A DNA stretch of 64,000 bases, taken from Candidatus Nealsonbacteria bacterium. GTDB lineage: Bacteria > Patescibacteriota > Minisyncoccia > Minisyncoccales > CAZKCU01. Position 1 is the stretch's first letter, and every line of letters starts with the position of its first letter. This document shows, piece after piece, positions 11,141-64,000 of the stretch. The position numbers and the translations under genes are program-made. The notes below the pieces were generated by a model, which was not told the DNA's origin, made no database searches, and was given only the letters and a program-made list of their open reading frames with translations. The DNA lies in contig CP179888.1 in NCBI GenBank assembly GCA_047456305.1, forward strand, positions 509,307 through 573,306, read 5' to 3'.

Positions 11141-12780
11141 TGCCACTTTTAACTTCTAACTTAAAAGTAAAATTTTTAGGAATTATTCCTATCTTGAAAA
11201 ACCAGATAGGAGTTTTAAATCCTCAACAAATTGTGGCCCTCTCCAGCCTGACAACGTTTAAAGGAAGCTCAATTAAAAAACTTTTAAAAGGAATTAAGAA
11301 AAAAGGTCAAAATTTAGATGAGAGAGTGAAATTAATTTTACAAAAATCTTCTTTAAGGGGGCATGCTTCCTTATCTACTACTCCTAGTCTTTGTTTAACA
11401 TTTGAAGGGAGTAAATTCTTAGATTCAGCTTTAACCGGGATTGTTTTTTCTTCATCTTTAATGGCTTCTGGCCGTCGGACTGACACTGCCATTAAAGATA
11501 TTGTTTATCCAGATGAAATCTTTATCAATAAAAAAGCAAGGGAGATTTACAATAAAGTTTCAGAAAAAATTATTGAAACGTTTAATTATTTTAGATCTCA
11601 GGGGGTTAGTAAAGACGAAGCGAGTAAAATTTTACAATATGGAATTTACGGCACAGGTCTTATTCAACTGCCGGTAGAATCAATTATTGCTATAAAAAAA
11701 GAATATGAAGTCGAAAAAGATTGGATGCCGACAGAAATTGGAATACTTTTAAGAAAAATAGAGAAAGAGACAAAGAAATTAGGGATTGACAGGCTTTATG
11801 CTACCCGCCAGGTTGCTCCGAGAAATGCATATCCTTATCCTAATATTTTTAAAAATCCGAAAAAATCAAACATTGTTCGTGAAATAAGAAAAAAACAAAG
11901 ATTATTTAAAGGAATAAAATTAATCTCAATGGATACTTTAATTAGGCCAGCTTTGAAGAAAAAACTCGCCGAGTTAGAAAAAAAGAGCCGAAAAACATTT
12001 AGTTCTTTAAAACAAATTAAAAAAAATTGGATGGAACTTCTTGATTTGCGTCAGGAAATTCTTAGAGACTACAATTTAGCTTTAAGATTTAAAGTATTGT
12101 CTTCTATACCTTGGCGAGTCTGGGGAGAAAAAAAACGGCATAGAACTGTACCTCAGACTATAGAGTCAATATATTATTGCATTGAAAGAGCAATAAAGAA
12201 ATTTAACAAATTAACCGCTACGCAGAAATTGCGTAACAATTTTAAAAAGCAAATTGAGAAAACAAAAATTAATAAAAAATTAGTAAAAGAAATAGAAGAA
12301 GTTTTTTCCATTCCTCCCTCAATCAAAAAAAATCCTGAATTTTTGTCAGAATATCTTTTAACTGCCTTAAAATCTTTTGAAGGTTATCAAAATTTACTTA
12401 AATTAAAAATTAAACCCAGAGAAGCTATTTTTTTAATTCCTCGGGCAGTAAAAATTGATATTTTGCAGGATTATGATTTCTACAACCTTTTAACCGGATA
12501 TTATCCGCTTAGATTATGCCCAACTGCTGAAGAGGAAATGAGAAGAAATACTTTAAAAGAAGTTTTGGAAATCAAAAAGACCTTAAAAGAAAAAGGATAT
12601 GGCTGGCTGAATAGATTTATTGGTCCCAAATGTCAAATTATGGGTTTTTGTCCGGAAGAAAAAAGTTGCGGTATGATTTTGAGTTCAGTTAAAAATTACA
12701 ATGAAAAATTTCACCAGGAGATGAAAGATGAGTTAAAAAAGAGATTTAAAAAAAATTTAAAAAATTTAGGTAGGCGATGA
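11140..12780 (+). CDS. ThyX-family flavin-dependent thymidylate synthase, long (about double-length) form
   Basis: 546 aa. The C-terminal half carries the ThyX RHR-x7-S motif (KRHRTVPQTIESIYY). The N-terminal half resembles a degenerate second ThyX half (LRGHASLSTTPSLCLTFEGS). The last codons and stop lie inside the repeat cluster. Confidence 0.6.
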   Translation: MPLLTSNLKVKFLGIIPILKNQIGVLNPQQIVALSSLTTFKGSSIKKLLKGIKKKGQNLDERVKLILQKSSLRGHASLSTTPSLCLTFEGSKFLDSALTGIVFSSSLMASGRRTDTAIKDIVYPDEIFINKKAREIYNKVSEKIIETFNYFRSQGVSKDEASKILQYGIYGTGLIQLPVESIIAIKKEYEVEKDWMPTEIGILLRKIEKETKKLGIDRLYATRQVAPRNAYPYPNIFKNPKKSNIVREIRKKQRLFKGIKLISMDTLIRPALKKKLAELEKKSRKTFSSLKQIKKNWMELLDLRQEILRDYNLALRFKVLSSIPWRVWGEKKRHRTVPQTIESIYYCIERAIKKFNKLTATQKLRNNFKKQIEKTKINKKLVKEIEEVFSIPPSIKKNPEFLSEYLLTALKSFEGYQNLLKLKIKPREAIFLIPRAVKIDILQDYDFYNLLTGYYPLRLCPTAEEEMRRNTLKEVLEIKKTLKEKGYGWLNRFIGPKCQIMGFCPEEKSCGMILSSVKNYNEKFHQEMKDELKKRFKKNLKNLGRR

Positions 12781-12928
12781 GAACTTCGTTCTCATCTTCA
12801 GCTACCCAAGTCGCAGCGAAGGGTGGAGAAGAGATTTATCTCTTCGACTCGCTTCCTATGGAAGCTCGGTAGTCGATGAAGCTAAAGCTTCATCTCCACG
12901 CTTCACTCGGCTTCACCTCGCTCGCGTA
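12771..12928. repeat. Tandem cluster of 3-4 GC-rich nested-hairpin mini-elements
   Basis: Hairpins gatgagaac/gttctcatc, gaagagat/atctcttc and gatgaagc/gcttcatc, with the shared words cgcagcgaagggtg, tccacgcttc, gaagctcggta and ctcgcgta. Confidence 0.85.
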
Positions 12929-14735: not shown

Positions 14736-16265
14736 ATGTATCAACCCGTCATCGGCCTGGAAATCCATGTTGAATTAAATACTAAGAGTAAGATGTTTTG
14801 TGGTTGCGCTAATGATTCCGATGAGCATCATCCTAACATTCTAATATGTCCAACATGTCTTGGACACCCGGGAAGTCTTCCAGTGATTAATAAAGAAGCT
14901 GTAAGAAAAACAATAAAAACAGGTCTATCTTTAAATTGCCAAATTCCTGAATATTCTAAGTTTGACCGGAGACTTTATTTCTATCCCGATTTACCAAAAG
15001 GATACCAAATTTCTCAATGGAAGGAGCCTCTTTGTAAGGGAGGATTTTTAGAAATTGAGGGCAAAAAAATAAGGATTAAAGAAATTCATTTAGAGGAAGA
15101 CGTTGGAAGATTAGTTCATGAAAGAGACTACAACCCACCCACCGCATCCTCCCGCGCCAAGGGCGCGGGCCCCTACTCTTTGGTAGATTTTAATCGAGCC
15201 GGCGTACCTTTAATGGAATTGGATACTGAGCCGGACATGAGGTCGGCAAAAGAGGCCAGGAAATTTGCTGAAGAATTACAATTGATTGTAAGGTATCTGG
15301 GGGTTTCTTCAGCTTTTATGGAAAAGGGAGAAATGAGATGCGATGCAAATATATCATTAACAAAAACAAAAAAGCTTGGGACAAAGGTAGAAATTAAAAA
15401 TTTGAACTCATTTAAAGCAATAGAACAAGGACTGGAGTATGAAATAAAGAGACAAACAGAAATTTTAAACTCTGGTGAAAAGATAACTCAAGAAACTCGA
15501 GGTTGGGATGATGATAGGGGAGTAACGGTTCCTCAAAGAGAAAAAGGAGAAGCGATATTTTCTCCTGAGCCAAATTTACCAATTCTTCATTTGGGAGTGG
15601 CAGATTATATTAATGAAATTAGAGCAGAAATTCCTGAATTACCTCGGCAAAGAAGAGAAAGATTTAAGAAAGAATATCACTTAGATGAAAAGAGTATTGA
15701 AATTTTTGTTCAAAATAAAGATTTTGGCGAGTATTTCGAGAAGGTAGTTTCGGAGTTCGGTCCAAGACTTTCCCAGGAAAAACTTTCAGGATTAATAAAA
15801 TTGGCCACAAATTATTTGATTACTGATTTACAGGGTTTATTAAAAGGAGCTTCAGTTACCCGAGTGAAGCGAAGGGTGAAGATGAACGAACGTTCATCGA
15901 CTGTTGGCGAGGATTTTCTGATTACTCCTGAAAATTTTGCAGAATTTATTACCTTAATTTATACAGGTGCAATTTCAAGTAAAATTGCCAAACAGGTTCT
16001 TGCTGAAATGTTTTCTACCGGCGCTGATCCTTCTCATATTATTGAAGAAAAAGGATTATCGCAGATAACTGATGAAGCTGAGATTGGAAAAATTATAAAA
16101 GAAGTTATTTCTAAAAATCCAAAAGCAGTTCAAGATTTTAAAAAAGGAAAAGAAACAGCTATCCAATTTTTAATCGGTCAAATAATGGCTCAGACAAAAG
16201 GAAAAGCCAATCCCAAAATAGTTAAAGATATTTTGAATAAACAGTTGACCCCCACACCTAATTAG
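14736..16265 (+). CDS. gatB: Asp/Glu-tRNA amidotransferase subunit B
   Basis: Start at ATG 14736 (MYQPVIGLEIHVELNTKSKMFCGC). IHLEEDVGR and a C-terminal YqeY-like domain. Carries two GC-rich in-frame inserts. Confidence 0.95.
   Translation: MYQPVIGLEIHVELNTKSKMFCGCANDSDEHHPNILICPTCLGHPGSLPVINKEAVRKTIKTGLSLNCQIPEYSKFDRRLYFYPDLPKGYQISQWKEPLCKGGFLEIEGKKIRIKEIHLEEDVGRLVHERDYNPPTASSRAKGAGPYSLVDFNRAGVPLMELDTEPDMRSAKEARKFAEELQLIVRYLGVSSAFMEKGEMRCDANISLTKTKKLGTKVEIKNLNSFKAIEQGLEYEIKRQTEILNSGEKITQETRGWDDDRGVTVPQREKGEAIFSPEPNLPILHLGVADYINEIRAEIPELPRQRRERFKKEYHLDEKSIEIFVQNKDFGEYFEKVVSEFGPRLSQEKLSGLIKLATNYLITDLQGLLKGASVTRVKRRVKMNERSSTVGEDFLITPENFAEFITLIYTGAISSKIAKQVLAEMFSTGADPSHIIEEKGLSQITDEAEIGKIIKEVISKNPKAVQDFKKGKETAIQFLIGQIMAQTKGKANPKIVKDILNKQLTPTPN
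15131..15176. repeat. GC-rich hairpin insert inside gatB (insert 1)
   Basis: caacccacccaccgcatcct-cccgcgcc-aag-ggcgcggg-cccc encodes NPPTASSRAKGAGP, lying between the conserved HLEED..H and SLVDFNRAG blocks. Confidence 0.7.
15858..15911 (-). repeat. Nested-hairpin mini-element inside gatB (insert 2, reverse orientation)
   Basis: acccgag-tgaagcgaagggtgaa-gatgaacg-aa-cgttcatc-gac, encoding TRVKRRVKMNERSST. Confidence 0.8.
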
Positions 16266-30537: not shown

Positions 30538-30551
30538 ACTTGCTCTCCCTC

Positions 30552-30579: not shown

Positions 30580-30679
30580 GTAGGTGTTAAAGGAGAGAGT
30601 GAATATTTTAATATTATGACGCCACAGACGACTCTCTCCGAGAGTCGCCTGTTGGGTTAAAAGAACTTTGAAAAAAAAT

Positions 30680-30765: not shown

Positions 30766-30799
30766 ACGCCCGCCGCAGGCGGGCAAGGAGGTAAAAGCG

Positions 30800-31654: not shown

Positions 31655-31667
31655 AAAGAAGGAGGGG

Positions 31668-32054
31668 ATGATGGAGCTACTGGCGGTGATACTATGTCTT
31701 GTACTATGTCTCGTTTTACACGAGGTGGGGCACGCACTGGCTGCCCTTGCGTGCAAAAGGCGAATTAAATTCCTCATAAATAGGGTTGGATTCGCTCTGC
31801 GCCATGACGGAAAAGCCCCCCTTACCCCTTGGCAGAAAATAGTTATTACTATTGCCGGACCGGGCACAAACATAATTGCGGGTCTGGTAGCGCTCATCTT
31901 AGGATGGACACAGATTGCAATGATGCAATTTTTATTTGGCGTCATTAATCTACTGTGGCTATCCCGGAAAGCCGACGGCTACAGGGCGTACAGGGAGGTT
32001 CGGCAGTTATTAATTGGGCTCCGGGGCCGGTCGGGGGCAAATAAGGAAGGGTAG
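31668..32054 (+). CDS. Minimal membrane metalloprotease-like protein (site-2 protease/M50-like HExxH in a TM helix)
   Basis: Start at ATG 31668 after GGAGGGG. LVLHEVGHALAA in TM1, AGPGTNIIAG, and NLLWLSRKADG resembling the S2P NxxPxxxLDG motif. About 128 aa and high GC. Confidence 0.45.
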   Translation: MMELLAVILCLVLCLVLHEVGHALAALACKRRIKFLINRVGFALRHDGKAPLTPWQKIVITIAGPGTNIIAGLVALILGWTQIAMMQFLFGVINLLWLSRKADGYRAYREVRQLLIGLRGRSGANKEG

Positions 32055-32136
32055 ATCGGCAGCTTCAAATAGTTTACCCTTCCTCCTATACTTCAGTTCA
32101 TTTCACAAGAAACGAACTGAAAAATGGGAACTTTTG

Positions 32137-32240
32137 AGGTCAGAAGCGCTCTCACGGAGCGAGAGAAATCTCTCTCCTCGCCTACCGAAGTTTTACTTGT
32201 AAAATTTTGGTGGGCTTCGCTCTGCGGGAGCACTTCTGAT
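32137..32240. repeat. GC-rich structured segment related to the mini-element family
   Basis: Closing stem tcagaagcgctc/gagcacttctga. Internal gagagaaatctctc hairpin. Shares cgcctaccgaag and cttcgctctgcggg words with other copies. Confidence 0.5.
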
Positions 32241-32248
32241 CTTGGGGC

Positions 32249-32276
32249 TTGACAAATTTTTTTAAAACAATACAAT
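32249..32276 (+). promoter_or_regulatory. Sigma70-like promoter upstream of the KH-domain gene
   Basis: TTGACA (32249-32254), 16-nt spacer, TACAAT (32271-32276). Confidence 0.45.
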
Positions 32277-32749: not shown

Positions 32750-32882
32750 ACTCATAATTCCGCTAAGTTTACAAAAATCTGAAAGCCGTGCTATCATTAA
32801 CCGAGCTTCCATTTAGGGAAGTGAAGGTGAAGAAGAGGACGAATTCCTCTTCGCCTTGATAGTGCGGTTTTCGTTTAATTTT

Positions 32883-33596
32883 ATGATTAAGTTTGATATT
32901 ATTACAATTTTTCCTGAGATTTTTAATTCTTATTTGAAAGAAAGTTTGATTGCCCGGGCTCAAAAAAAGAAATTAATTGAAATTAATATCCACGATTTGA
33001 GAAAATGGACATCCGATGTCCACAAGACGGTGGATGATAGACCTTTTGGGGGAGGAATAGGGATGGTGTTAAAAGTTGAACCGATTTATAAAGCTGTAAA
33101 AGAGATAAATAAACTTGTCTTTGCTAAAGCTTCGGCGAGGCGAGGAAAATCAAAAATAATTTTATTTACTCCAAGAGGAAGAAAATTTAATCAAAAGATG
33201 GCTTATCGGTTGTCAAAATTGAATCAGATAATTATGATTTGCGGTAGATATGAAGGAGTGGATGAGAGAATAGCAAAGTATATTGCCGATTTAGAATTAT
33301 CAATTGGCGATTACGATTTAATGGGAGGAGAATTACCGGCAATGGTGGTTATTGAGGCAACAACTCGATTAATTCCTGGAGTTTTAGGAAAACCAGAATT
33401 ATTAAAAGAAAGAATTACCAAGGAAAAGGGATTTATTGAATATCCTCAATATAGTAGACCGGAAGTTTTTTCGCCCAAGAAGGGAGTTTATTGGAAAGTT
33501 CCTAAGGTTTTGTTATCCGGCTATCACAAAAAAATTGAAGAGTGGCGAAGAAAACATAGAAAGATCATTGAAAACCCGAGCGATAGCGAAGGGTGA
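32883..33596 (+). CDS. trmD: tRNA (guanine37-N1)-methyltransferase
   Basis: Start at MIKFDIITIFPEIF. DDRPFGGGIGMV, CGRYEGVDERI and SIGDYDLMGGELPAMV. The last codons and stop lie in a mini-element. Confidence 0.95.
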   Translation: MIKFDIITIFPEIFNSYLKESLIARAQKKKLIEINIHDLRKWTSDVHKTVDDRPFGGGIGMVLKVEPIYKAVKEINKLVFAKASARRGKSKIILFTPRGRKFNQKMAYRLSKLNQIIMICGRYEGVDERIAKYIADLELSIGDYDLMGGELPAMVVIEATTRLIPGVLGKPELLKERITKEKGFIEYPQYSRPEVFSPKKGVYWKVPKVLLSGYHKKIEEWRRKHRKIIENPSDSEG

Positions 33597-33628
33597 AGAT
33601 GAAGCGATAGCTTCATCGCCTACCGAAA
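33574..33628 (-). repeat. Nested-hairpin mini-element at the trmD 3' end (reverse orientation)
   Basis: acccgag-cgatagcgaagggtgaa-gatgaagc-gata-gcttcatc-gcctaccgaaac. Confidence 0.8.
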
Positions 33629-33680
33629 CTAATTGAAAATTCATTGAGAAATAACCATTTTTGTGGTAAAATAACTTAAA

Positions 33681-33861: not shown

Positions 33862-34023
33862 ATGCCAGCAAAAAAACCATTTATTAAACTTCAATGTTCT
33901 GAGTGTAAAAGAATAAATTATTATACTCACAAATCAAAAAAAATAATTGAGAAGAAATTAGAATTGAAAAAATTCTGTAAATGGTGTAGAAAGCACACGG
34001 TACATAAAGAGATGAAGAAGTGA
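33862..34023 (+). CDS. rpmG: Ribosomal protein bL33 (below the ORF-track size cutoff)
   Basis: 53 aa: MPAKKPFIKLQCSECKRINYYTHKSKKIIEKKLELKKFCKWCRKHTVHKEMKK*. CxxC...CxxC zinc ribbon typical of L33. Confidence 0.85.
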   Translation: MPAKKPFIKLQCSECKRINYYTHKSKKIIEKKLELKKFCKWCRKHTVHKEMKK

Positions 34024-34054
34024 TAAATAAAATTTTAAAGACGAGTGTCTTAAT

Positions 34055-34315
34055 ATGTTTTGGGAAAATTTTTGGGCAAATTTAATTTCTGGTATTACTT
34101 TATTATTTTTTGGGCACAAAAAGAAGAATGCAAGATTAGAACAGGAAAGTAACAATAAACAGAAAAATAAAGCTGGTCCCAATATTGTTCAGAATATTGG
34201 TACACAAAATATTCATTATCACTATCATAACTATTATATTGATCCTAAAGATATTCCTTCTTCTAAAATAAAAGACACAAACATTACTGGTACAACACAT
34301 AATATCAATGAGTAA
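34055..34315 (+). CDS. Small membrane protein (one N-terminal TM, polar His/Asn-rich tail)
   Basis: 86-aa ORF with FWANLISGITLLFFG and HYHYHNYY. First gene of the island. Confidence 0.4.
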   Translation: MFWENFWANLISGITLLFFGHKKKNARLEQESNNKQKNKAGPNIVQNIGTQNIHYHYHNYYIDPKDIPSSKIKDTNITGTTHNINE

Positions 34316-34347
34316 TAAAAAAATAATAATTAATAATAAATTTAAAT

Positions 34348-35055
34348 ATGTTTTTTAAGAATAAACTACAGACTAAAATTAAAAAAGTTAAAAATTCAAT
34401 TATTGCTATTGGCTTTAAACCAAATCCTCAACAGATAACTATAGTTGGTAGCGGTTTTGCTATTAGTGATGACGGGAAGGTTTTAAGTTCTGCCCACCTT
34501 TACAATCAGTTAAAACCAGAAAATATCCCTAATCTTATGGGAATGGTTACAGAAAGAGAGGAAAAAGATGGGTTAACGCGTTATAAATGGCTTCCTCTTA
34601 AATTAATCGAGGATAAGAAAAATGATAAAGATGATGTAGCCCTTTTTCAATTGGAAGGACACGAGAAGACATTGCTTAATAAGATAAATTTGGGTGATTC
34701 AGAAAACGTTGAAGTTGGCGAAGATGTTTATTTCATAGGTTTTCCTTATGCCGCTCAGCTTATTAACGATCATTTTGGGGTTACCCTTATAGTCAATAAA
34801 GGGATTATAAGTAATATAAAAAGAGACGGAATTGATCCCAGTCACAAGAAAAACTGGTTTATTGTTGATGCAATAAGCAATCCTGGAAATAGCGGTTGCC
34901 CTCTTATAAAATTAGATACAAATGAAATTATTGGTATTATGGCTATTTCTTTCCGTATAAAATCCAGAACAGTTGATAATCTTGATATTAGGGAACCAAT
35001 GCACATAGCTGGTGCAAAACCCATAAATTTAGCAAAACCTCTTTTAGAAACTTAA
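34348..35055 (+). CDS. Trypsin-like (S1/chymotrypsin-fold) serine protease without a signal peptide
   Basis: 235 aa. Triad contexts GSGFAISDDGKVLSSAHL (His), DDVALFQL (Asp) and GNSGCPLI (Ser). No hydrophobic N-terminus. Confidence 0.75.
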   Translation: MFFKNKLQTKIKKVKNSIIAIGFKPNPQQITIVGSGFAISDDGKVLSSAHLYNQLKPENIPNLMGMVTEREEKDGLTRYKWLPLKLIEDKKNDKDDVALFQLEGHEKTLLNKINLGDSENVEVGEDVYFIGFPYAAQLINDHFGVTLIVNKGIISNIKRDGIDPSHKKNWFIVDAISNPGNSGCPLIKLDTNEIIGIMAISFRIKSRTVDNLDIREPMHIAGAKPINLAKPLLET

Positions 35056-35059
35056 TTAT

Positions 35060-35686
35060 ATGCCAAAAGAATGGATTTTAAATAGTGCTATAAATCGTTG
35101 GGGTCTTCAAAGAAAGAAGCAAGTTGGTGCTGTCTCTGATGAGATAAGAAAATGTAGCCCAAAAGATCTTGAAGATTGGGAAGAATATTATTTTAAAAAT
35201 GTTTATCCAAAGGAACATTTAGTTGAAATTGGTAGAAAGTTATATATAAAAATTTCCGAAGTTTTGGAGGCAGAAATAGAAAGCATTACAGAACAAGATT
35301 GTATTGATTATGTAATCAATTTGGTTCTAAATAGGACTTTCGATGGATATGTTAGTGAAAAGCAAACGATTTATGGACAACTACAAGATATTTTGGGAGT
35401 TAAAATAGAGCCAGCGTCAGATGAATGGGATAGATTATTTAATGTGGATTTTTATATTAAAATAAAAGAAAAATACATTGGTTTGCAGATTAAACCTACG
35501 GGATATGCTTTTATCACTCAGATTATTAAAGAACAGGAAGTACAAAAACAAACCCATAAAAAATTTACAGATAAATATGGAGGCAAAGTATTTTATATTT
35601 ACTCTATAAAAGAAGGTGATAAAAAAGTTATCCATAATAAAGAAGTTATTGACGAAATTAAACAAGAGATTAAACGATTAAGTTAA
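35060..35686 (+). CDS. Putative type II restriction endonuclease partner of the adjacent methyltransferase
   Basis: 208 aa, 4 nt upstream of the MTase. Possible PD-(D/E)xK-like core NVDFYIKIKEKYIGLQIKP. Assignment rests mainly on context. Confidence 0.45.
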   Translation: MPKEWILNSAINRWGLQRKKQVGAVSDEIRKCSPKDLEDWEEYYFKNVYPKEHLVEIGRKLYIKISEVLEAEIESITEQDCIDYVINLVLNRTFDGYVSEKQTIYGQLQDILGVKIEPASDEWDRLFNVDFYIKIKEKYIGLQIKPTGYAFITQIIKEQEVQKQTHKKFTDKYGGKVFYIYSIKEGDKKVIHNKEVIDEIKQEIKRLS

Positions 35687-35689
35687 ACT

Positions 35690-36634
35690 ATGTCTACCAC
35701 CCATAAAATTATTATAGGGGATTCACAGAATATGGCCGAGACTAAAGATGAATTGATTCATCTCGTCATTACATCGCCGCCCTATTGGCAACTCAAAGAT
35801 TATGGAGATTCAAACCAGATTGGTTTCAATGATAATTATGAGGATTATATTGATAATTTAAATAAAGTGTGGGCAGAATGTTATAGGGTTTTATATCCCG
35901 GCTGTAGATTATGTGTTAATATAGGCGACCAATTCACCAGAGCGGTGACTTATGGAAGATACAAAATTATACCTATTCGTGAAGAAATTATTAGATTTTG
36001 TGAATCAATCGGATTTGATTATATGGGTGCGATAATTTGGCAGAAAAAAACTACGATGAATACTACAGGCGGAGCTTCGGTAATGGGTTCTTTTCCTTAT
36101 CCTAGAAACGGACTCATTGAAATTGATTACGAATTTATATTGTTATTCAAAAAATTGGGTCAATCGTCGAATAAGGTAAGCAAAGAAATTAAAGAAGAAT
36201 CTAAACTATCAAACGAAGAATGGAGAAAATATTTTACAGGGCATTGGAATTTCGCTGGTTGTAAACAAGATAAACATGTTGCTATGTTTCCAGATGAATT
36301 ACCGAGACGACTTATAAAAATGTTTAGTTTTGTTGATGAAACAGTTCTTGATCCGTTCTTGGGAAGCGGAACTACTTCAAAAGTAGCGCGGAAATTAAAA
36401 AGAAATTCAATCGGATATGAAATTAATAAAGATTTTTTACCGATAATTGAAGACAAAATCGGCAAAAATAAACCATCATTGTTTGATCAAAAAGATGTAA
36501 TTGAAGTTATTTACCAGAGTAATAAAAAAGAGAACAATAATCATTCACTAAAAATTGGCGAAAACAATAAAACAATCAATAATCGTATTCGTCACCCAGA
36601 ATATTGGAAAACATTAAAAAACGAAAGTTTTTAA
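35690..36634 (+). CDS. DNA methyltransferase, beta-class N4-cytosine/N6-adenine type (SPPY motif)
   Basis: 314 aa. Motif IV LVITSPPYWQLKDY precedes motif I DPFLGSGTTSKVA (beta permutation). SPPY favours m4C. Confidence 0.9.
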   Translation: MSTTHKIIIGDSQNMAETKDELIHLVITSPPYWQLKDYGDSNQIGFNDNYEDYIDNLNKVWAECYRVLYPGCRLCVNIGDQFTRAVTYGRYKIIPIREEIIRFCESIGFDYMGAIIWQKKTTMNTTGGASVMGSFPYPRNGLIEIDYEFILLFKKLGQSSNKVSKEIKEESKLSNEEWRKYFTGHWNFAGCKQDKHVAMFPDELPRRLIKMFSFVDETVLDPFLGSGTTSKVARKLKRNSIGYEINKDFLPIIEDKIGKNKPSLFDQKDVIEVIYQSNKKENNNHSLKIGENNKTINNRIRHPEYWKTLKNESF

Positions 36635-36675
36635 AATAATCTTATTTGAGATTCTGCCGTATAAAATCCGTGTAT

Positions 36676-36738
36676 GGATTGAAGAAGTGATGTAAATGGT
36701 GTAGAAAACACACGGTACATAAAGAGATGAAGAAGTAA
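36676..36738 (+). pseudogene. Displaced relic of the rpmG 3' end
   Basis: 63 nt, 56/63 identical to 33961-34023. In the rpmG frame it reads GLKK*CKWCRKHTVHKEMKK*, with an internal TGA. Confidence 0.7.
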
Positions 36739-40296: not shown

Positions 40297-40833
40297 ATGA
40301 CTATCTTAGAGATTAAAAAATATCCAGACCCGATTTTGAGAAAAAAATGCTCGCCCGTCCAAATTTCGCGAAGTAAAACTTGGTCGGGTAAAGAAGTAAA
40401 AGAAATAGCTCCGGATATAAAACAGCTAATTAATGATATGATAGAGACAATGGAAGAAAACAAAGGAGTAGGTTTAGCTGCTCCTCAAGTTGGCATTTTA
40501 AAAAGAATTATCGTTGCCCAGACAGACTATGGGTCTAAGGCTTTTATTAATCCGGAAATTATCAAAAAAACAAAAGAGAAAGAAATTATGGAAGAGGGTT
40601 GTTTGAGTTTTCCCGATCTTTGGCTGAAAGTAGAAAGAGCAAAAGGAGTAGAAATTACCGCCTTAGATAGTAATGGAAACAAAATAAAAGCCGAAGGGCT
40701 TTTAGCTAGAATTCTCCAGCACGAAATTGACCATTTAGATGGCATTTTATTTATCGATAGGATTTCTTTTTGGCAGAGATTGAAAATTAGAAAAAAATTA
40801 AAAGAGATTGAAGAAAAATATGGCTCTCGTTGA
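40297..40833 (+). CDS. def: Peptide deformylase
   Basis: 178 aa. GVGLAAPQVG, EGCLSFP and HEIDHLDG. Has a ~12-aa insert near the N-terminus. Confidence 0.95.
   Translation: MTILEIKKYPDPILRKKCSPVQISRSKTWSGKEVKEIAPDIKQLINDMIETMEENKGVGLAAPQVGILKRIIVAQTDYGSKAFINPEIIKKTKEKEIMEEGCLSFPDLWLKVERAKGVEITALDSNGNKIKAEGLLARILQHEIDHLDGILFIDRISFWQRLKIRKKLKEIEEKYGSR
40352..40390 (+). repeat. GC-rich hairpin insert inside def
   Basis: cgcccgtccaa-atttcgcgaagtaaaac-ttggtcgggta encodes QISRSKTWSGKE, which is extra relative to typical Def. Ends in tcgggta like the family consensus. Confidence 0.55.
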
Positions 40834-41437
40834 TAATCTAATTGAAGGAGGTTGGTTAAAAACTCCGAGAATTATTGAGGCCTTTCGAAAAATTAAAAGA
40901 GTGGATTTTTTGCCGGAGGATATTAAAAATTTAGCTGAACTAAATGAAGCCCTGCCAATAGGTTATGGCCAGACTATTTCTCAACCCCTGGTAGTAGCTT
41001 TTATGTTAGAGAAACTTCAACCTCAGCCAGGCAATAAGATTTTAGATATTGGTTCTGGTTCTGGATGGACCTCAGCTCTCTTGGGGGAGATCGTCGGCGA
41101 GGCGGGGAAAATCACAGCTATAGAGGTAATTCCCGAATTAAAAGAGTTCGGTGAAAAAAACGTTTCAAAATATAATTTTATAAAAAAGGGACAGGTTCAA
41201 TTTATCTGTGCCGATGGTTCAAAAGGATATGAAAAAGAAGCTCCTTTTGATGGGATTTTAGTTTCAGCCAGTGTCCAAACTGAGGTTCCTCAAGCCTGGA
41301 AAGACCAGATAAAAATCGGTGGAAGAATTGTTACTCCACTCGGCTCCTCAATTTGGCGATTTACGAAAAAAAGCGCTACTAAATTTGAAGAAATTGAATA
41401 CCCGGGTTTTGTTTTTGTCCCCTTAATCGAAAAATGA
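40808..41437 (+). CDS. pcm: Protein-L-isoaspartate O-methyltransferase
   Basis: 209 aa. GYGQTISQPLVVAFMLE and ILDIGSGSGWTSALL. Start may be M5. Confidence 0.85.
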   Translation: MKKNMALVDNLIEGGWLKTPRIIEAFRKIKRVDFLPEDIKNLAELNEALPIGYGQTISQPLVVAFMLEKLQPQPGNKILDIGSGSGWTSALLGEIVGEAGKITAIEVIPELKEFGEKNVSKYNFIKKGQVQFICADGSKGYEKEAPFDGILVSASVQTEVPQAWKDQIKIGGRIVTPLGSSIWRFTKKSATKFEEIEYPGFVFVPLIEK

Positions 41438-42393
41438 AATTGCGTTTTTTAATTATAATTTTAATTATTTTTCTTTGCGGTTTTTTTCTTTGGCAGGGGA
41501 TTTATTTGCCAAAAGAAGGGATTTGTCTAGAGGAGAAATTGTTTTTAGTTGAGAAGGGTGAAAATCTTTTTCAGATTGCCGAAAATTTAGAAAAAGAAGA
41601 TTTAATTAAAAATAGATTTTTCTTTGGTTTTTATGTATTAATAAAAGGGGGTCAAGACAAACTTCGGGCCGGGGAGTATTTTTTGAGCCCATCAATGAAT
41701 ATTACTGAAATTGCCAGAAAAATCATTTTAGGAGAAATAGCAAAAATAATGGTGACAATACCAGAAGGGTTTACGGTAAAACAAATTGAAAAGCTACTTG
41801 GATTAAAGTTGCCTGGCAGAGATTTGGAAGGATTTTTGTTTCCCGATACCTATCAATTTCCGTTGAGAGTAGGCGAAGAAGACAAATCTTCTTCTTCACC
41901 CTTCGCTGCGGCTCGGGTAGGCGAAGAAGTGGTTAAAAAAATGCGAGATAATTTTGAGAAAAAACTGACCCAAGATTTACGAGAAGAAATTGAAAAACAA
42001 GGGAAAACGGTCCGGGAAATAGTAATTATGGCTTCTTTAATTGAAAAAGAAGTCAAAACAAAAACAGACAAAAAATTAGTTTCGGGAATTTTGTGGAAGA
42101 GGCGAAATCATAATATTCCCTTACAGGTTGATGCAACTATAAATTACATTACTGGGAAAAAAACCATAAAAGTTTCAATTGAGGAGACTAAAATTGATTC
42201 TCCCTACAACACTTACAAGTATTTGGGCTTACCTTTGGGCCCGATTTGCAATCCGGGCCTTGAAAGTATTGAAGCGGCAATATACCCCAAAAGTAGTCAC
42301 TATTGGTATTATTTGTCAACGTCGAATGGAGAGACCTATTTTAGTGAAACTCTAGAAGATCACAACATTAAAAAAGCAAAATACTTAAAATAA
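41434..42393 (+). CDS. mltG: Endolytic murein transglycosylase MltG (YceG-like)
   Basis: 319 aa. N-terminal TM, EGFLFPDTY, ASLIEKE and SPYNTY. Carries a 48-nt in-frame element. Confidence 0.9.
   Translation: MKLRFLIIILIIFLCGFFLWQGIYLPKEGICLEEKLFLVEKGENLFQIAENLEKEDLIKNRFFFGFYVLIKGGQDKLRAGEYFLSPSMNITEIARKIILGEIAKIMVTIPEGFTVKQIEKLLGLKLPGRDLEGFLFPDTYQFPLRVGEEDKSSSSPFAAARVGEEVVKKMRDNFEKKLTQDLREEIEKQGKTVREIVIMASLIEKEVKTKTDKKLVSGILWKRRNHNIPLQVDATINYITGKKTIKVSIEETKIDSPYNTYKYLGLPLGPICNPGLESIEAAIYPKSSHYWYYLSTSNGETYFSETLEDHNIKKAKYLK
41869..41929 (+). repeat. Nested-hairpin mini-element inside mltG with a 13-bp flanking direct repeat
   Basis: gtaggcgaagaag (41869-41881) recurs at 41917-41929, a 48-nt period. 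Core gaagaaga-caaa-tcttcttc-ttcacccttcgctgcggctcgggt encodes GEEDKSSSSPFAAARV. Confidence 0.85.
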
Positions 42394-49103: not shown

Positions 49104-50228
49104 ATGAGTAAAGCATTTAAAACAATTTTAATCATTTCAATTATTGTTTTTGGCGGTAGCTTTTTATTGATTAATTCGGCACAGGCAGGAGTGTTTTGGT
49201 TTAGGGACAAAAATATCAGTATAGATTTTGATGAGCTCCCTTTTGATTTGACTAATTTTGCACCGGGGATGAGTGATGTAAAAAGCATCATCATAAAAAA
49301 TAATGAAAATTTTGATATCAATGTTTACTTTGGAGCAAAAAAAACATCAGGCGACGATGTTTTAGCCAATGTCTTGACCATTACTATTGGTGATAAATCA
49401 AATCATTTATCGGATTTATTCAATAATGATATAGCTCTTACTCCAGTCAATTCTGGGAAATCCCAGAACTATAATATTGCTCTAAGTTTTGATGAAGATG
49501 CCGGGAATGAGTGTCAAGGTAAAACTATAAATTTTGATTTTATCATTACTGCTGAACAAATAGGAAAAGGTAATGGAGAGATACCACCAGTAGATATTCC
49601 CGGCGGAGGAGGTGGTAGGGCTTTATTAACCATTCAAAAGGGCTCGGTGAGGATACCAGAGATTGGAGAAACCAGTGTGACTATTACCTGGTTAACTTCT
49701 TATTCTTCCACCAGTCAGGTGATTTATGCTGCTGCCGGTGAAACATATAGTTTTGATTTAACTAAAACTAACTATGGTTATCCTCACGCGGCTCCTGTTC
49801 CTGAAGATTCAACAAAAGTCACTTTTCATTCCGTGACGATTACTGGTCTTACTCCCGGTACTACTTATTATTATCGAACAGTCTCTCATGGTTCATTGGC
49901 AATTAGTGATGAATATAGGTTTACAACCAAAGGCATAGCAGGAGGAGTAGTAGAAGAAAAAGAAGAGGAAAAAATGGAAGAAATAAAAAAACCTCTTGGG
50001 GAGGTTGAGGGGGAATTAGAGGAAAAAATACCACCTGAGGAAGAAATTAAAGAAGAAATGCCAAAAGAAGAAAAAAGAGCTTTGGGAGAGATATTTGCCA
50101 CCGAGGGATTATTAGCGGCAATTGGTGCTATGTCCTTTAATCTGAAAGTAATTTTAATTATAGGCGGAATTGTTATAATTGGATTGATTATCTTGCGGAT
50201 AATTAGAAAGCGAAAAATTAAAAGTTAA
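49104..50228 (+). CDS. TasA-like protein with an FN3-like module and a C-terminal membrane anchor
   Basis: 374 aa. Signal LINSAQAGVFWFRDK, APGMSDVKSIIIKNN, C-strand NECQGKTINFDFIITAEQ, FN3-like VTITWLTSYSSTSQVIY...TPGTTYYYRT, E/K linker, TM ILIIGGIVIIGLIIL and an RIIRKRKIKS tail. Confidence 0.65.
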   Translation: MSKAFKTILIISIIVFGGSFLLINSAQAGVFWFRDKNISIDFDELPFDLTNFAPGMSDVKSIIIKNNENFDINVYFGAKKTSGDDVLANVLTITIGDKSNHLSDLFNNDIALTPVNSGKSQNYNIALSFDEDAGNECQGKTINFDFIITAEQIGKGNGEIPPVDIPGGGGGRALLTIQKGSVRIPEIGETSVTITWLTSYSSTSQVIYAAAGETYSFDLTKTNYGYPHAAPVPEDSTKVTFHSVTITGLTPGTTYYYRTVSHGSLAISDEYRFTTKGIAGGVVEEKEEEKMEEIKKPLGEVEGELEEKIPPEEEIKEEMPKEEKRALGEIFATEGLLAAIGAMSFNLKVILIIGGIVIIGLIILRIIRKRKIKS

Positions 50229-52392
50229 TCTGGTATACTTTTAAACCGTTCAAAAGATAGATTATCTTCCCGTTATCAGAGACTGCAAAATCTTTTAGAT
50301 TGTCAAATTTTTCACTTTGGAATTGCTTGATAATTTTGCCAGTTTTGTCTAAAACAATTATTCGGTTCTGAATTGGTTCTAAAATATAAAGATAGGGAAG
50401 ATTTGGCAAAGCAATAATTTTATAAAGTTTTTTTGGATAAGGAAAAAAGTCCAGGCTTAAATCCTTTTGATGTTGACCACCATAATATCGCGAAATCGTG
50501 TTATTTTCTTTCAAAATCCAAATTGAACCATCTACAGCTATAGATTTGCTATCTGTGGCTTTTTTAGTTTCGGAACTTAACCAAAACTGAGGAGAATCTT
50601 TACCTTCTTCTAAAGGGGCAGTATATTTGATAATTTCGCCCTTTTCTGAATCTAAAAAATAAAGATTTATCCGAAACGAAGAAAAATCACTGAAATCAAA
50701 AACCCGAGCCGCAGCGAAGGGTAAAGAAGAGGATTTATCCTCTTCGCCTTCAGGATAAGGTTGTTTCAAAGAGAGGGATTCACCAAATTGACCATTTTTA
50801 AAAGTGGCTATTTTATCTGGTTTTGAAAAAAATAAGATAGCGTCATCAAGGGAGGCGGCTAAATTGAATTTTTGATCAGTTTGAATAAGACTGCCTTCGC
50901 TTCTCTCATTTATTTTAAATAGATTCTGAGAGTAAGGACTAAAAAAATAAAGGTCTTGCTGAGAAATAACCATTTTTTGGGGAATAAGGTCTTCTGAATT
51001 AAATTCAAAAATAAGTTTAGGGTCAGTAATTTTTTCTAATTTGTTTAGATTTTTAAGATGTTCTTCAATAGATTCTTTTAAAGAAGTCGCCTCGTTTTTT
51101 AATTTCCCCTCTTTTGTAGTTAGTGGTAAAATTTCCTGCCAGCTTTCCTTAAATAAAATATTGGCTTTTTCTTCTTCTTTAAAAATTAAAAAATTTTCTG
51201 CTTGATTTATTTTCTCTTGAACTTCATTTAAGACAGCTCTTTGCTTTTTTAATTGCTGTTTTTCTTCTTTCTGAAATATAAAAAATCCTATCAAGAGAAC
51301 AAGAGCTAAAACTAGAACTGAAATTAGGCCTTTCTTTAAATTTTCAGTAATTTTAATTTTTGCTTTGAGATTTGAAGTAGTTGGAAGCTGGAGATGAGGA
51401 ATTTTGATTTTTTTTGTTTTTAATTTAAATTTTAATTGGAGAAGGTGAAAAACATTTTTCACTTTATAAACTAGGCCGCTCAGCTTTTTCTTTAATTTTT
51501 TCGCAATTAAAGTGGCGATGGAGGATAGAAGCTTCTTTAAAATTAGACCAACCTTTACCAATAATCTGATTAGCGGAGAAAGAGCCTCTCTTATTGAGAA
51601 TTTTTCTACTTCTTTTTGGAAAGTAACAATTTTTGGTTTTTCTAAGTGGCCTTCTGCTAAAACTTCTGATAGGTCAATAAAAAGACAAACCCCTGAGATT
51701 TCTGAAAGTCTTTTTTCTTTGGCTTTTAAAATTTCTCTTAATTTTTTCTCGTCAAAAGAGGGCTCTTTAACGAATTTAGTTAATAAACTTTCTGATGAGA
51801 AAAGTTCTTCGCCTTTGTTTGCCTTTTGACGAGTTTTCCCGCCTTCAGCGAGGGCTTCGGCGAAAACAGTAAAAACCTCTTTGGTTAATACCAAAATTTT
51901 ATCATTGACATCCAATTTTCCAGAAACAATATTGATAAATATTTTTAAAGGGTAAGGTTCAATATCTTGAAGGTCGAGATTTTTCCCAATGTCTATTATT
52001 TTACCAGCTCTTAGCAGTAAAATTTTAATATCTCCAACTTTAGTAAAATTTAAATCAAAATTTTTGAGAGACAAAACGGCAAAATTTAAATTTCCTAGCC
52101 AACTAACATTTTCCTTTGAAACCTCACCAGCTAAAAATTCATTTATTTTTTTTAGACCTTCTTTAAAAGATTGTTCTGGTGTTTGAAGAGGCAGGGCATA
52201 GTATCTTCCTTTTATGACTTGAGCTATATTATCCAAAAGCCGGGAATTTTGGGGCAGGGTATTGCGAAGCTCTCCTACCATATAGAGACTTCCCAGTCTT
52301 TTTTCATAAATATTTTCTGGTTCATAACAAAAACTATCAAAGATTAAATCTTCTTTCGCTTCAGGGTTAAAATGTAATTCAAAAATTCGCAT
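50218..52392 (-). CDS. Hypothetical bitopic membrane protein (cytoplasmic N-domain, one TM, beta-rich extracytoplasmic C-domain)
   Basis: 724 aa. TM LISVLVLALVLLIGFFIF. The C-terminal half is rich in short beta-strand repeats. Carries an in-frame mini-element. Its 3' end overlaps the convergent 49104-50228 gene by 11 nt. Confidence 0.6.
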   Translation of the reverse strand: MRIFELHFNPEAKEDLIFDSFCYEPENIYEKRLGSLYMVGELRNTLPQNSRLLDNIAQVIKGRYYALPLQTPEQSFKEGLKKINEFLAGEVSKENVSWLGNLNFAVLSLKNFDLNFTKVGDIKILLLRAGKIIDIGKNLDLQDIEPYPLKIFINIVSGKLDVNDKILVLTKEVFTVFAEALAEGGKTRQKANKGEELFSSESLLTKFVKEPSFDEKKLREILKAKEKRLSEISGVCLFIDLSEVLAEGHLEKPKIVTFQKEVEKFSIREALSPLIRLLVKVGLILKKLLSSIATLIAKKLKKKLSGLVYKVKNVFHLLQLKFKLKTKKIKIPHLQLPTTSNLKAKIKITENLKKGLISVLVLALVLLIGFFIFQKEEKQQLKKQRAVLNEVQEKINQAENFLIFKEEEKANILFKESWQEILPLTTKEGKLKNEATSLKESIEEHLKNLNKLEKITDPKLIFEFNSEDLIPQKMVISQQDLYFFSPYSQNLFKINERSEGSLIQTDQKFNLAASLDDAILFFSKPDKIATFKNGQFGESLSLKQPYPEGEEDKSSSLPFAAARVFDFSDFSSFRINLYFLDSEKGEIIKYTAPLEEGKDSPQFWLSSETKKATDSKSIAVDGSIWILKENNTISRYYGGQHQKDLSLDFFPYPKKLYKIIALPNLPYLYILEPIQNRIIVLDKTGKIIKQFQSEKFDNLKDFAVSDNGKIIYLLNGLKVYQINF
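50702..50748 (-). repeat. Nested-hairpin mini-element inside the 724-aa gene (forward relative to the gene)
   Basis: Gene-sense ggcgaagagga-taaa-tcctcttc-tttacccttcgctgcggctcgggt encodes GEEDKSSSLPFAAARV. Confidence 0.85.
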
Positions 52393-59376: not shown

Positions 59377-59399
59377 AAATATTAAACCCTTTACCCTCA

Positions 59400-59453
59400 G
59401 GCGAAGAGAACTTCGTTCTCTTCTTCACCTTCGCTTCCTTCGGAAGCTCGGTA
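59400..59453 (+). repeat. Nested-hairpin mini-element (intergenic, forward)
   Basis: ggcgaagagaac-ttc-gttctcttc-ttcaccttcgc-ttcc-ttcg-ggaa-gctcggta. Confidence 0.85.
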
Positions 59454-61618: not shown

Positions 61619-64000
61619 TTCAAAAAAAGCAGCAATTTTTCAGGCATTAATTTGGGAGAGAGCTTTTCGATTGGCTATATTCCTTAAAAAATTCTTTTTA
61701 ATTTTATTTATTTTTACTTTTTTAATATTTTTATATGGATTTCTGACAGAAAACTTTAGCCAATCAGCCCTTTCTCTTTTATTTGGTTTTTCGATAATCT
61801 TTTTGACATTGACAATTATTCTCTGGATAAAGATACTCTTTTTTGACTTAAAACTAAAGAGGCCGAAATTGAAAATAACAATTCAGGAAGCCCAAAATAG
61901 TCTGGAGGAAGGCGATGAACCTTCGGTTCATCTTCGCTCAGCCCAAGGGGGCTTCGTAGGCGATGAACTTCGTTCATCTTCACGCTTCGCTGACGCTCGC
62001 GTATATAATTTAGCTGAGTTTTTAAGTTTTGAGGTAGCTAAAAGTATTCGGCAGGCAATTAAATTCTCTAAAAAGAGAAAACTTGCCAAGATTCCTTCTG
62101 AAGCCCTACTTTACTTCTTATTAAAAGGGTGGCCCCGGGCAAATTTTATATTCTCTCGAGCCCTCTTAAATCTAAAAGAGATTAAAAAAGAATTGAAAAA
62201 TTATTTGGATAGTTTAAAAAGCAAGAAGTTTCAAGAAATTTTTTCTGAAGATTTTCAAAAAGTAATTTTAGAAGCTTTAAAAATTGCTCAAAGAAAAGGT
62301 CATCAGACCATTGAAATGGGGGATATTTTAACCAGCCAGAGCAAAATTGACCCGACTTTCAAAAAACATCTAATTGTCATGGATATCAAGACCCGGGACA
62401 TTGAAAATTTAACCAGCTGGTTAGAAAGTTTGGAAGAAAGAATTTCAGAGAGAAAAAAATTTTGGGAATACAAAAATTTGGCCAAAAAAGGAAGTTTAGC
62501 CAAAGAATGGGCGGCAGGTTACACTCCTACTTTAGACCAATATTCAATTGATTGGACTAATTTTATTAAAAAGAGAGGATTTGAGGAGATTATTGGCCAT
62601 AAATCAGCTATTGAGCAAATTACCCGGATTTTGGCTAAATCAGAAATTAATAATGTTTTATTAGTAGGTGAACCAGGAACCGGTCGAGGAGCTACTATCC
62701 AGGCCTTGGCTCAAAGAAGTCTTTTTGGCGAGAGCTTACCCAATTTAAATTATAAAAGAGTGGTTGAATTAGATATGACTTCTTTATTGACTCGAATTGA
62801 AAAACCTGAAGAGATAGAAGCAATTTTAGACCTAATTTTTCGAGAAGTAATTTTTGCGGGAAATATTATTTTAATAATTAATGAGTTCCATAATTATGTT
62901 GGCCAGCTGGCCAGACCAGGGATTATCGACATTTCTGGAGTTCTAGTTCCTTATCTAAGATCTCCCCAGTTTCAGATTGTTGCCATAACTACCTTTATAG
63001 GTTTGCATAAATATATTGAGCAAAATCCATCCATTTTATCTTTATTTGAAAAAGTTGAAGTTTCTGAAATTTCAGCCAAAGAGACAATTAGGCTTTTGGA
63101 AAATCAGGCTTTAATTCTTGAACAAAAATATAGAAAGTTTGTTTCCTATCTGGCAATAAGAGAAATAGTAAATTATTGCCAGAAATATTTATCAGCCATT
63201 CCCTTTCCAAAATCAGCAATGAATCTCTTAGATGAAATTATGGTCTATTTGGTCAGTGAGACAAAAGAGCAAATTTTATTACCAAAACATGTGGCCGAAG
63301 TTGTTTCTGAAAAAATTCAAATCCCGGTGGGAGAATTAAAGGTCAGGGAGAGAGAAATTTTGTTAAATTTAGAAAATTTGATTCATCAGAGAATTATTGA
63401 CCAAGAAGAGGCAGTAAATGAAGTTTCAGCAGCTATGAGAAGGGCTAGGGCTGGCTTTACCATAAGGTCAGGGCCAATGGGTTGCTTCTTATTTTTAGGT
63501 CCAACCGGAGTAGGGAAGACTGAAACTTCCAAAGCTCTGGCCGAAATCTACTTTGGTTCAGAAGAGAAAATGATAAGATTAGATATGTCAGAATTTCAGG
63601 ATACTCGAGATATCCCAAGATTAATTGGTTCTGCCTCAAAAGAGGGTCTTTTAACAACCCCGGTTAGAGAAACCCCTTTTTCCTTAATTTTACTCGATGA
63701 AATTGAGAAGGCCCATCCAAATATCTCAAATTTATTTTTACAGGTTTTTGATGAAGGCCACTTGACCGATGGATTAGGCAGAAAAGTTGATTTTAAAAAT
63801 TCAATTATTATTGCTACCTCAAACGCCGGGGCAAAGATTATCTGGGAGGATATTAGATTGAATAAAAAATTAGACATTGTCAAAGAAGATCTCTTGGGCT
63901 ATCTTTTTCAAAAAGGGATTTTCCGACCAGAATTCATTAATCGATTTGATGGAGTAGTTGTTTTCAGACCCTTAACTAAAGAAAACCTTTTAGATATTGC
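61596..64000 (+). CDS. Clp/Hsp100-family double-AAA+ ATPase with an N-terminal membrane anchor (3'-truncated by the window end)
   Basis: Open frame from ATG 61596 to the window end, so absent from the ORF track. Two N-terminal TMs. D1 P-loop GEPGTGRGATIQALAQR. D2 GPTGVGKTETSKALAE, LLDEIEKAHP, IIIATSN and RPEFINRFD. Confidence 0.85.
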   Translation, partial: MVSKFYFNSKKAAIFQALIWERAFRLAIFLKKFFLILFIFTFLIFLYGFLTENFSQSALSLLFGFSIIFLTLTIILWIKILFFDLKLKRPKLKITIQEAQNSLEEGDEPSVHLRSAQGGFVGDELRSSSRFADARVYNLAEFLSFEVAKSIRQAIKFSKKRKLAKIPSEALLYFLLKGWPRANFIFSRALLNLKEIKKELKNYLDSLKSKKFQEIFSEDFQKVILEALKIAQRKGHQTIEMGDILTSQSKIDPTFKKHLIVMDIKTRDIENLTSWLESLEERISERKKFWEYKNLAKKGSLAKEWAAGYTPTLDQYSIDWTNFIKKRGFEEIIGHKSAIEQITRILAKSEINNVLLVGEPGTGRGATIQALAQRSLFGESLPNLNYKRVVELDMTSLLTRIEKPEEIEAILDLIFREVIFAGNIILIINEFHNYVGQLARPGIIDISGVLVPYLRSPQFQIVAITTFIGLHKYIEQNPSILSLFEKVEVSEISAKETIRLLENQALILEQKYRKFVSYLAIREIVNYCQKYLSAIPFPKSAMNLLDEIMVYLVSETKEQILLPKHVAEVVSEKIQIPVGELKVREREILLNLENLIHQRIIDQEEAVNEVSAAMRRARAGFTIRSGPMGCFLFLGPTGVGKTETSKALAEIYFGSEEKMIRLDMSEFQDTRDIPRLIGSASKEGLLTTPVRETPFSLILLDEIEKAHPNISNLFLQVFDEGHLTDGLGRKVDFKNSIIIATSNAGAKIIWEDIRLNKKLDIVKEDLLGYLFQKGIFRPEFINRFDGVVVFRPLTKENLLDI
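61911..62003 (+). repeat. Two tandem nested-hairpin mini-elements in frame inside the Clp-like gene
   Basis: ggcgatgaacc-ttc-ggttcatc-ttcgctcagcccaaggg, then taggcgatgaac-ttc-gttcatc-ttcacgcttcgctgacgctcgcgta. Encodes GDEPSVHLRSAQGGFVGDELRSSSRFADARV. Confidence 0.85.

Follow-up and report, generated by a model that had tools for sequence, protein, structure and literature searches.

A probable family of mobile hairpin mini-elements kept in frame within genes of Nealsonbacteria and related Parcubacteria

The gene mltG, which encodes a YceG-family protein, lies within a 64-kb stretch of a Candidatus Nealsonbacteria genome (contig CP179888.1; the whole stretch is referred to here as the window) and contains a short GC-rich segment at 41869-41929. 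The original prediction held that this segment is a mini-element translated in the same frame in three unrelated proteins, namely MltG, a 724-residue membrane protein and a Clp-like ATPase, and direct reading of the three open reading frames (ORFs) bears this out. MltG reads RVGEEDKSSSSPFAAARVGEE at the insert, the 724-residue ORF reads EGEEDKSSSLPFAAARV at 50702-50749, and the Clp-like ORF, which runs off the end of the window, reads EGDEPSVHLRSAQGGFVGDELRSSSRFADARV at 61910-62002. Pfam identifies the third host as a Clp-type AAA+ ATPase, while a Pfam search of the 724-residue protein found no family. The 48-nt element of the three host genes follows the plan AGGCGA–hairpin 1–TCTTCACC(C)TTCGCT–hairpin 2–GCTCGGGT. 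Between mltG and the 724-residue gene the two copies share 92% DNA identity across 48 nt, and the paired stem change that had been proposed between them is present as one compensatory change (A-T to G-C). The two units of the Clp-like gene jointly add 93 nt, or 31 amino acids; the first, expected to be the shorter, is in fact the longer (48 nt versus 45 nt). An nhmmer profile search mapped 11 solid units in the window, and the motif GTAGGCGAWGA (W, A or T), with at most one mismatch, was matched 12 times against 0.84 expected. With a GC content of 35% for the window as a whole, the elements form GC-rich islands within AT-rich DNA.

Uninterrupted alleles were sought in relatives and found for all three proteins, and among the homologs compared the peptide was not encountered at the same position in distant lineages. 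The MltG insert is absent from 118 of the 120 best homologs (63-87% identity), the exceptions being the window itself and the protein P0002 (loci L003-L005), whose gene carries a longer, 57-nt copy at the identical nucleotide position. The empty mltG allele reads ...agg GTAGGCGGAGAAGAAG tcg... in the closest relative, L001 (GCA_964431915.1), and GTAAGCGGTGAAGAAG in L115. At the site cctga^ttttRa of the 724-residue gene (R, A or G; the caret marks the insertion point) the window has exactly 48 extra nucleotides relative to L001, L003 and L004, without duplication. That insert is missing from 109 of the 111 homologs covering the site and is carried by the window and by L115, an 89%-identical relative; two other homologs have an independent copy, VDELRSSSPFANAQV, about 20 residues upstream. 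None of the 26 Clp-like ATPase homologs, nor the L003 ortholog, has the 93-nt, two-unit insert, and in the spacer preceding trmD 58 nt have been inserted at ctatca^aatRat, again without duplication. Copies are gained or lost between close relatives. Very probably, the 41869-41929 segment represents a single copy of a non-autonomous, hairpin-forming mini-element family of Nealsonbacteria and related Parcubacteria that is kept in frame within genes.

Since the source is a metagenome-assembled genome (MAG), in which short repeats can mis-join contigs, we considered an assembly or binning artefact in the form of a chimeric repeat collapse. The reading frames are intact, however, three assemblies made independently from different samples (L003-L005) share the same filled mltG allele, and the filled allele of the 724-residue gene recurs in GCA_016782565.1. 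The probability of an artefact is therefore negligible.

Across the family the unit measures 45-58 nt and is built as AGGCGA(A/T)GA–hairpin 1 (7-9 bp)–TCTTCACC(C)TTCGCT–hairpin 2–GCTCGG(G)T. Two types can be distinguished: a long type (54/57 nt) with a complete second hairpin, for example GCTTCC-loop-GGAAGC, and a short type (45/48 nt, including the mltG copy) in which hairpin 2 is reduced to the closing pairs ACCC/GGGT. Among 28 distinct 48-nt copies, 98.2% of cells in the stem alignment are paired and compensatory changes occur at 5 pairs, ACCC/GGGT to ACGC/GCGT being one of them; none of 500 shuffles performed as well, and slid controls were only 34-67% paired. An Rfam search returned no family matching the element. 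Scanning one genome per species with a degenerate pattern produced 107 stretches, and the 80 listed loci among these span at least 32 assemblies. Their labels are Nealsonbacteria, Parcubacteria, Patescibacteria or 'Saccharibacteria', with a single exception in a bin labelled Gammaproteobacteria. The scan yielded 114 copies, 112 of them non-redundant after two redundant loci were dropped.

The 13-mer gtaggcgaagaag occurs on both sides of the mltG element (41869-41881 and 41917-41929, a spacing of 48 nt), as had been noted from the sequence, where two origins were offered for it: a target-site duplication, or insertion next to an element-like sequence. The second stands and the first is ruled out. 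The left copy is element sequence, given that AGGCGA(A/T)GA starts the element at unrelated loci; the empty alleles of L001 and L115 already hold 13 of 16 bases; and the filled and empty pairs of the 724-residue gene and the trmD spacer show no duplication. Of the 112 copies in the family, 99 show a flank-to-flank identity of 0-1 nt. The native mltG codons GTA GGC GG(A/C) GAA GAA already resembled the 5' end of the element before insertion, hence the flanking repeat. The net gain in mltG relative to the 118 orthologs is 15 codons, not exactly 16 as predicted, and these 45 nt equal either a canonical 48-nt unit minus 3 nt or a 45-nt patch between GTAGGC and GGCGAAGAAG. The same repeat, with its 48-nt period, could be taken as a sign of local tandem duplication, and the presence of an insert at the same mltG site in the L003 lineage as a sign that the peptide is an ancestral or convergent protein motif. 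Such an origin is scarcely credible: the insert is missing from nearly all homologs of each host protein, copies in unrelated genes share 92% DNA identity, the 35 nt between the repeats have no local source, and the same element is found in intergenic positions and in at least 32 assemblies.

Insertion takes place directly 5' of an asymmetric target, A-W-W-T-(G/A)-A, or of the element-like sequence AGGCGA. Positions +4 to +6 downstream read TGA in 49 copies and TAA in 21, so that T(G/A)A is present in 70 of 112 copies against a background of 4.4% (p=2e-65), and position +6 is A in 106 of 112. In the trmD spacer this motif is aatAAt in the empty site of L001 and aatGAt in the window. Being native in the empty site, T(G/A)A belongs to the target, and the alternative assignment of the downstream TGA or ATGA to the element was rejected. 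Both AGGCGA, the 5' end of the element, and AGGTGA, the opposite strand of the central TCACCT, fit the pattern A-N-N-Y-G-A (N, any base; Y, C or T). This mimicry of the target by the element accounts for head-to-tail arrays, for nested copies and for the mltG site: 8 copies are directly followed by a further unit, and reverse-orientation copies are nested at TCACCT^TCGC in the window (12804-12849) and in L003 (14877-14922). The family thus inserts without target-site duplication at an asymmetric target, has conserved hairpins and turns over between relatives.

Copy lengths cluster at 48, 57, 54 and 45 nt and are multiples of three in 85 of 114 cases (p=3e-19), a property also shared by 63% of intergenic copies. 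Within long ORFs (35 copies, 19 in sense and 16 in antisense orientation) 33 have such a length and all 35 are stop-free in the frame of the host. The sense copies use the GGC-GAA-GAA frame in 17 of 19 cases, the remaining two being 58-nt copies that rejoin it, and 11 of the 16 antisense copies use the frame TRA.AKGE.E..SSP. In-frame translation extends to reverse-orientation copies, among them the gatB copy (15858-15902) and the tandem units of the 724-residue protein's L003 ortholog. In-frame insertion with a shared peptide is therefore found in unrelated conserved genes, comprising the three window hosts and gatB, with 31 intragenic copies elsewhere. Hosts elsewhere include the seryl-, threonyl- and valyl-tRNA synthetases (SerRS, ThrRS, ValRS), an RluA-type synthase, RtcA, CTP synthase (PyrG), UvrC, topoisomerase I (TopA; two copies), triosephosphate isomerase (TIM) and GatB. 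The original explanation for the common frame was that the element has only one stop-free frame. This does not hold as stated: the mltG copy is open in all three forward frames, and family-wide the share of copies without stops is 39%, 85% and 96% for the three forward frames, so that frame use is not fixed by internal stops alone, and we rejected a single open frame as the complete account. The TGA or TAA of the target excludes one frame, the junction codons (T^AG, T^AA) often close a second, and tolerance of the peptide probably accounts for the remaining preference.

A model in which selection sorts the insertions would fit these counts. In a genome that is about 90% coding, only frame-keeping copies would survive in essential genes, that is, copies with a length divisible by three, free of stops and placed in tolerant loops or linkers. 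The surviving intragenic copies would mostly stand in the frame that gives a hydrophilic peptide, G(E/D)E..SSS.PFA.AR forward or TRA.AKGE.E..SSP in reverse, and the insert would be translated and retained. Mitochondrial GC-cluster or 'byp' hairpin elements behave differently, breaking the reading frame and being bypassed by the ribosome. The elements described here are likewise GC-rich mobile hairpins that invade genes of an AT-rich genome, and this likeness is what could favour RNA-level excision or translational bypassing of the inserts. If the segment were skipped, however, the length and stop-free constraints seen in intragenic copies, the former exceeding that of intergenic copies, would be needless; they indicate translation. 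Both orientations occur in genes, and the element at the end of trmD supplies a new C-terminus and stop codon. We consider excision or bypass very improbable.

The predicted position within the MltG fold fits a tolerated surface loop, where the insert had been expected to lie. In an AlphaFold2 model of the window MltG (mean predicted local distance difference test score, pLDDT, of 85.6) the insert occupies residues 147-162, and residues 149-155 fall below a pLDDT of 50, giving a low-confidence loop. The insert sits between a strand (139-143) with a short helix (144-147) and a long helix (156-177), which its last residues lengthen. The Listeria MltG structure 4IIW aligns across the insert site with a gap.

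In 21 of 73 intergenic copies, all in sense orientation, the element stops exactly 2 nt short of a long ORF's start codon. In many of these it separates a Shine-Dalgarno-like motif from the ATG, as in GAGGAGtaataa^element^ctATG in L072. Extension of the downstream gene's N-terminus through the element was considered and rejected for most copies, which have in-frame stops within the element or immediately ahead of it and are followed by canonical N-termini. Together with the covarying stems and the excess of lengths divisible by three outside genes, this placement raises the possibility that the elements are host-beneficial structured modules, such as 5' untranslated region (5'-UTR), mRNA-processing or translation-initiation signals, spread by their usefulness, with the coding copies as by-products. 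The target preference nonetheless explains the position before ATG(A), because an empty site natively carries the T(G/A)A/ATGA motif, which is equally present beside intragenic copies. Intragenic copies also show no orientation bias, copies are polymorphic between close relatives and there is no Rfam match, and we regard a primary role as host modules as quite unlikely.

A reading that draws on the same placement is that of a previously undescribed, target-specific mini-transposon adapted to coding sequence, which could act through its two hairpins as a mobile 5'-UTR or translation-initiation module and be moved by an enzyme unrelated to the transposases of repetitive extragenic palindromic (REP) sequences or of IS200. 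It would account for the lengths divisible by three, the open frames in both orientations and the hydrophilic peptide, and the A-N-N-Y-G-A target would drop the element 2 nt before ATGA, between the Shine-Dalgarno sequence and the AUG. We hold this to be unlikely.

For the mode of movement of the mini-element family, hairpins near both ends, the lack of inverted termini, the absence of duplication and the one-sided target together make up a pattern like that of IS200/IS605 or of REPs and their REP-associated tyrosine transposases (RAYTs). Mobilisation might accordingly be a single-strand reaction of the HUH/Y1 type (IS200/IS605- or RAYT-like), with the activity provided in trans, a proposal that we put forward tentatively. 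For mltG itself, a microhomology-mediated patch from a tandem donor array would explain the 45-nt gain equally well.

Several observations weigh against our interpretation of a mobile, translated mini-element family or limit how far it can be taken. Stem covariation in a repeat family can also arise from several master copies, and canonical 48-nt boundaries require an additional loss of 3 nt in mltG. Translation of the insert is a property that we infer from frame statistics only. Within the approximately 0.95 Mb of DNA flanking the elements, a scan for HUH/Y motifs gave 0 transposase candidates and tblastn with E. coli RayT gave a best E value of 0.53; the window-specific islands hold no transposase, containing instead a restriction-modification system and small ORFs. 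In the MltG tree, the filled alleles of the window and L003 fall into different clades, and gene-by-gene protein identities to L001, L003 and L115 are mosaic over window positions 32000-52600: for TrmD they stand at 90% to L001 and 71% to L115, and for the ABC ATPase at 71% to L001 and 81% to L115. Such mosaic identities suggest recombination among the lineages of the window, L001, L003 and L115. With a split tree and mosaic identities, independent hits at a hot spot, precise loss and allele exchange are indistinguishable, and an attempt to infer precise excision from presence and absence in relatives was abandoned given the mosaic. A search for split 'parent' elements with halves 0.2-4 kb apart produced only chance-level pairs.

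In-frame palindromic inserts are known in the form of the Rickettsia palindromic elements (RPEs) and of GTAG/CGTC REPs lying inside genes of Opitutus and other genera (PMC10969869, PMC3733652). RPEs are hairpin repeats that stand in frame in unrelated housekeeping genes, encode a conserved peptide and probably occupy sites tolerated by the fold (PMC10969869, PMC3733652). The original prediction placed the mltG segment alongside them, a reading supported by the uninterrupted alleles and the loop position in MltG. Shared features are hairpin formation, a reduced AT-rich host genome, in-frame insertion into housekeeping genes and a common peptide. The Nealsonbacteria family is nevertheless distinct from the RPE sequence families: its units of 45-58 nt are three times shorter than RPEs (~100-150 bp), its matches lie in Patescibacteria-type MAGs, it has no Rfam family and it showed no detectable sequence relation to RPEs, a separation made by length, host and absent Rfam match. 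It further differs in being translated in both orientations, in its A-W-W-T-R-A target, in its self-targeting tandem and nested copies and in keeping lengths divisible by three outside genes.

Intragenic in-frame REPs encoding 20-30 residues occur in Opitutus terrae and R. conorii, where genes for replication and repair are frequent hosts, and GTAG is the RAYT cleavage motif (PMC3733652). Like REPs and bacterial interspersed mosaic elements (BIMEs), the Nealsonbacteria units are small imperfect palindromes found as singles, dimers and clusters without target duplication, and, as the element begins with AG and ends with GT, a head-to-tail junction reads GTAG. However, GTAG is present in only 22 of 112 copies (including mltG) and hence is no fixed tag, the unit combines conserved single-stranded motifs with a pair of different hairpins in direct order, and no RAYT was found in the 0.95 Mb of flanking DNA. 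The miniature derivatives of IS200/IS605 (PATE-type, Y1 HUH) are matched in the lack of terminal inverted repeats and target-site duplications, in hairpins near both ends and in a fixed orientation beside a short one-sided target; when both are read on the opposite strand, the pattern TC...T^ is common to the target (TYAWWT^) and the element end (TCGCCT^). The Nealsonbacteria family departs from them in its frequent tandem arrays, and no parent insertion sequence or transposase was found in the sampled DNA. MITEs (transposable elements of the miniature inverted-repeat type) and the enterobacterial RU/ERIC repeats are small and non-autonomous, and are occasionally intragenic, adding peptide segments (PMC2759123, PMC10969869). 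The family resembles these in being small, non-autonomous and partly intragenic, but its termini (AGGCGA... and ...GCTCGG(G)T) do not form an inverted pair, so it lacks the terminal inverted repeats of a classical MITE as well as the target-site duplication.

The Nealsonbacteria family works like RPEs and intragenic REPs and belongs to neither. Its unusual traits are the quantisation of length in threes outside genes, the translation of both orientations, the self-mimicking target and the frequent position 2 nt upstream of start codons, and our literature search found no description of such elements in the candidate phyla radiation (CPR)/Patescibacteria. The presence of such a repeat inside essential genes means that the RPE phenomenon is not confined to Rickettsia. 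Some of the smallest bacterial genomes (the contig here measures 0.64 Mb) tolerate an actively turning-over selfish repeat in essential cell-wall, tRNA-charging, DNA-repair and glycolytic genes, and the inserts create strain-level length variation in marker proteins. The GC-rich islands that result can be misread as functional motifs and can confuse the annotation of start codons and orthologs in CPR genomes. Many clean filled and empty pairs, combined with an explicit target rule, could make the insertion mechanism inferable from metagenomes.

Table 1. Element copies and host coding sequences in the window.
Feature	Position	Strand	Remarks
Long-type element split by a nested reverse copy at TCA(G/C)CT^	12772..12870	+	
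Nested element inside the preceding copy	12804..12849	-	46 nt; same nested site in L003 at 14877-14922
Unit head-to-tail with the 12772-12870 copy	12871..12927	+	57 nt; ends 2 nt before ATG of next ORF
Element antisense to gatB (14625-16265, +)	15858..15902	-	45 nt; in-frame translation TRVKRRVKMNERSST
Long-type element, spacer between KH-domain gene and trmD	32800..32856	-	57 nt; clean empty site in L001 and L004, without duplication
Element overlapping trmD 3' end	33574..33621	-	48 nt; C-terminal K-stop becomes NPSDSEG-stop, stop codon from element
mltG coding sequence (YceG family), insert host	41434..42393	+	319 aa; Pfam YceG/MltG
Short-type element in mltG	41871..41918	+	48 nt; translated GEEDKSSSSPFAAAR(V)
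Coding sequence of 724-aa membrane protein, insert host	50218..52392	-	no Pfam family
Short-type element in 724-aa gene	50702..50749	-	48 nt, sense orientation; translated (E)GEEDKSSSLPFAAAR(V)
Degenerate element-derived segment, 724-aa gene	51794..51879		FAEALAEGGKTRQKANKGEELFS; weak nhmmer match only
Long-type intergenic element	59399..59452	+	54 nt
First unit, Clp-like ATPase insert	61910..61957	+	48 nt; variant without TTCACC
Second unit, Clp-like ATPase insert	61958..62002	+	45 nt; translated GDELRSSSRFADAR(V)

The remaining copies in the window are collected in Table 1. At the 3' end of trmD, the whole of 33574-33649 is a 76-nt insertion relative to L001, made up of the reverse-orientation element and about 28 nt of AT-rich sequence, and the new TrmD stop codon derives from the element's GGGTGAAGA. 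At the site of the degenerate segment in the 724-residue gene (51794-51879), the L003 and L005 orthologs have three tandem, translated, reverse-orientation units and L004 has one. Near-identical strains vary in the number of tandem units (L003 12038-12230 and 9124-11368; L004 10209-12357), L003 has an intergenic array of four units, and a weak element-like sequence lies at 32124-32185 of the window.

A second, unrelated family of in-frame mini-elements has the form GACTACAACCCACCCACC(G/A)C..TCCTCCC–GC hairpin–GGGCCCCTA and gives the peptide DYNPPT(A/T)SS...GP. Copies lie in gatB of the window (15126-15180), in L001 (1237-1295) and in L058, L034 and L097. The host proteins are GatB in the window, RNase HII in L001, where the gene has 47 nt more than in the window, and also RtcA and a class-I tRNA synthetase. 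The peptide deformylase gene def contains a 39-nt (13-codon) GC-rich in-frame segment, GCTCGCCCGTCCAAATTTCGCGAAGTAAAACTTGGTCGG, at 40349-40387 that is missing from the L001 ortholog and may be a degenerate copy or belong to another family.

Larger differences from L001 are also found nearby. A window-specific island of 2.66 kb (34019-36678), absent from L001, is bounded by 59-bp direct repeats (33963-34021 and 36678-36736, 92% identical) that cover the 3' end of the L33 gene, and encodes a trypsin-like protease, a putative restriction enzyme and a DNA methyltransferase. Approximately 1.9 kb at 30389-32270 does not align with L001; within it lie two small ORFs, one of them having the look of an HExxH-like membrane protease, and direct repeats of 70 nt (30667-30736 and 31553-31622) that are 81% identical. 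L001 also lacks an intergenic insertion of 158 nt, rich in GC and in hairpins, that stands between the genes for RNase III and S16 (29828-29985). Finally, 9-nt repeats of the GGT-CCT-GAA type at 60504-60647 encode a collagen-like G-x-y tract.

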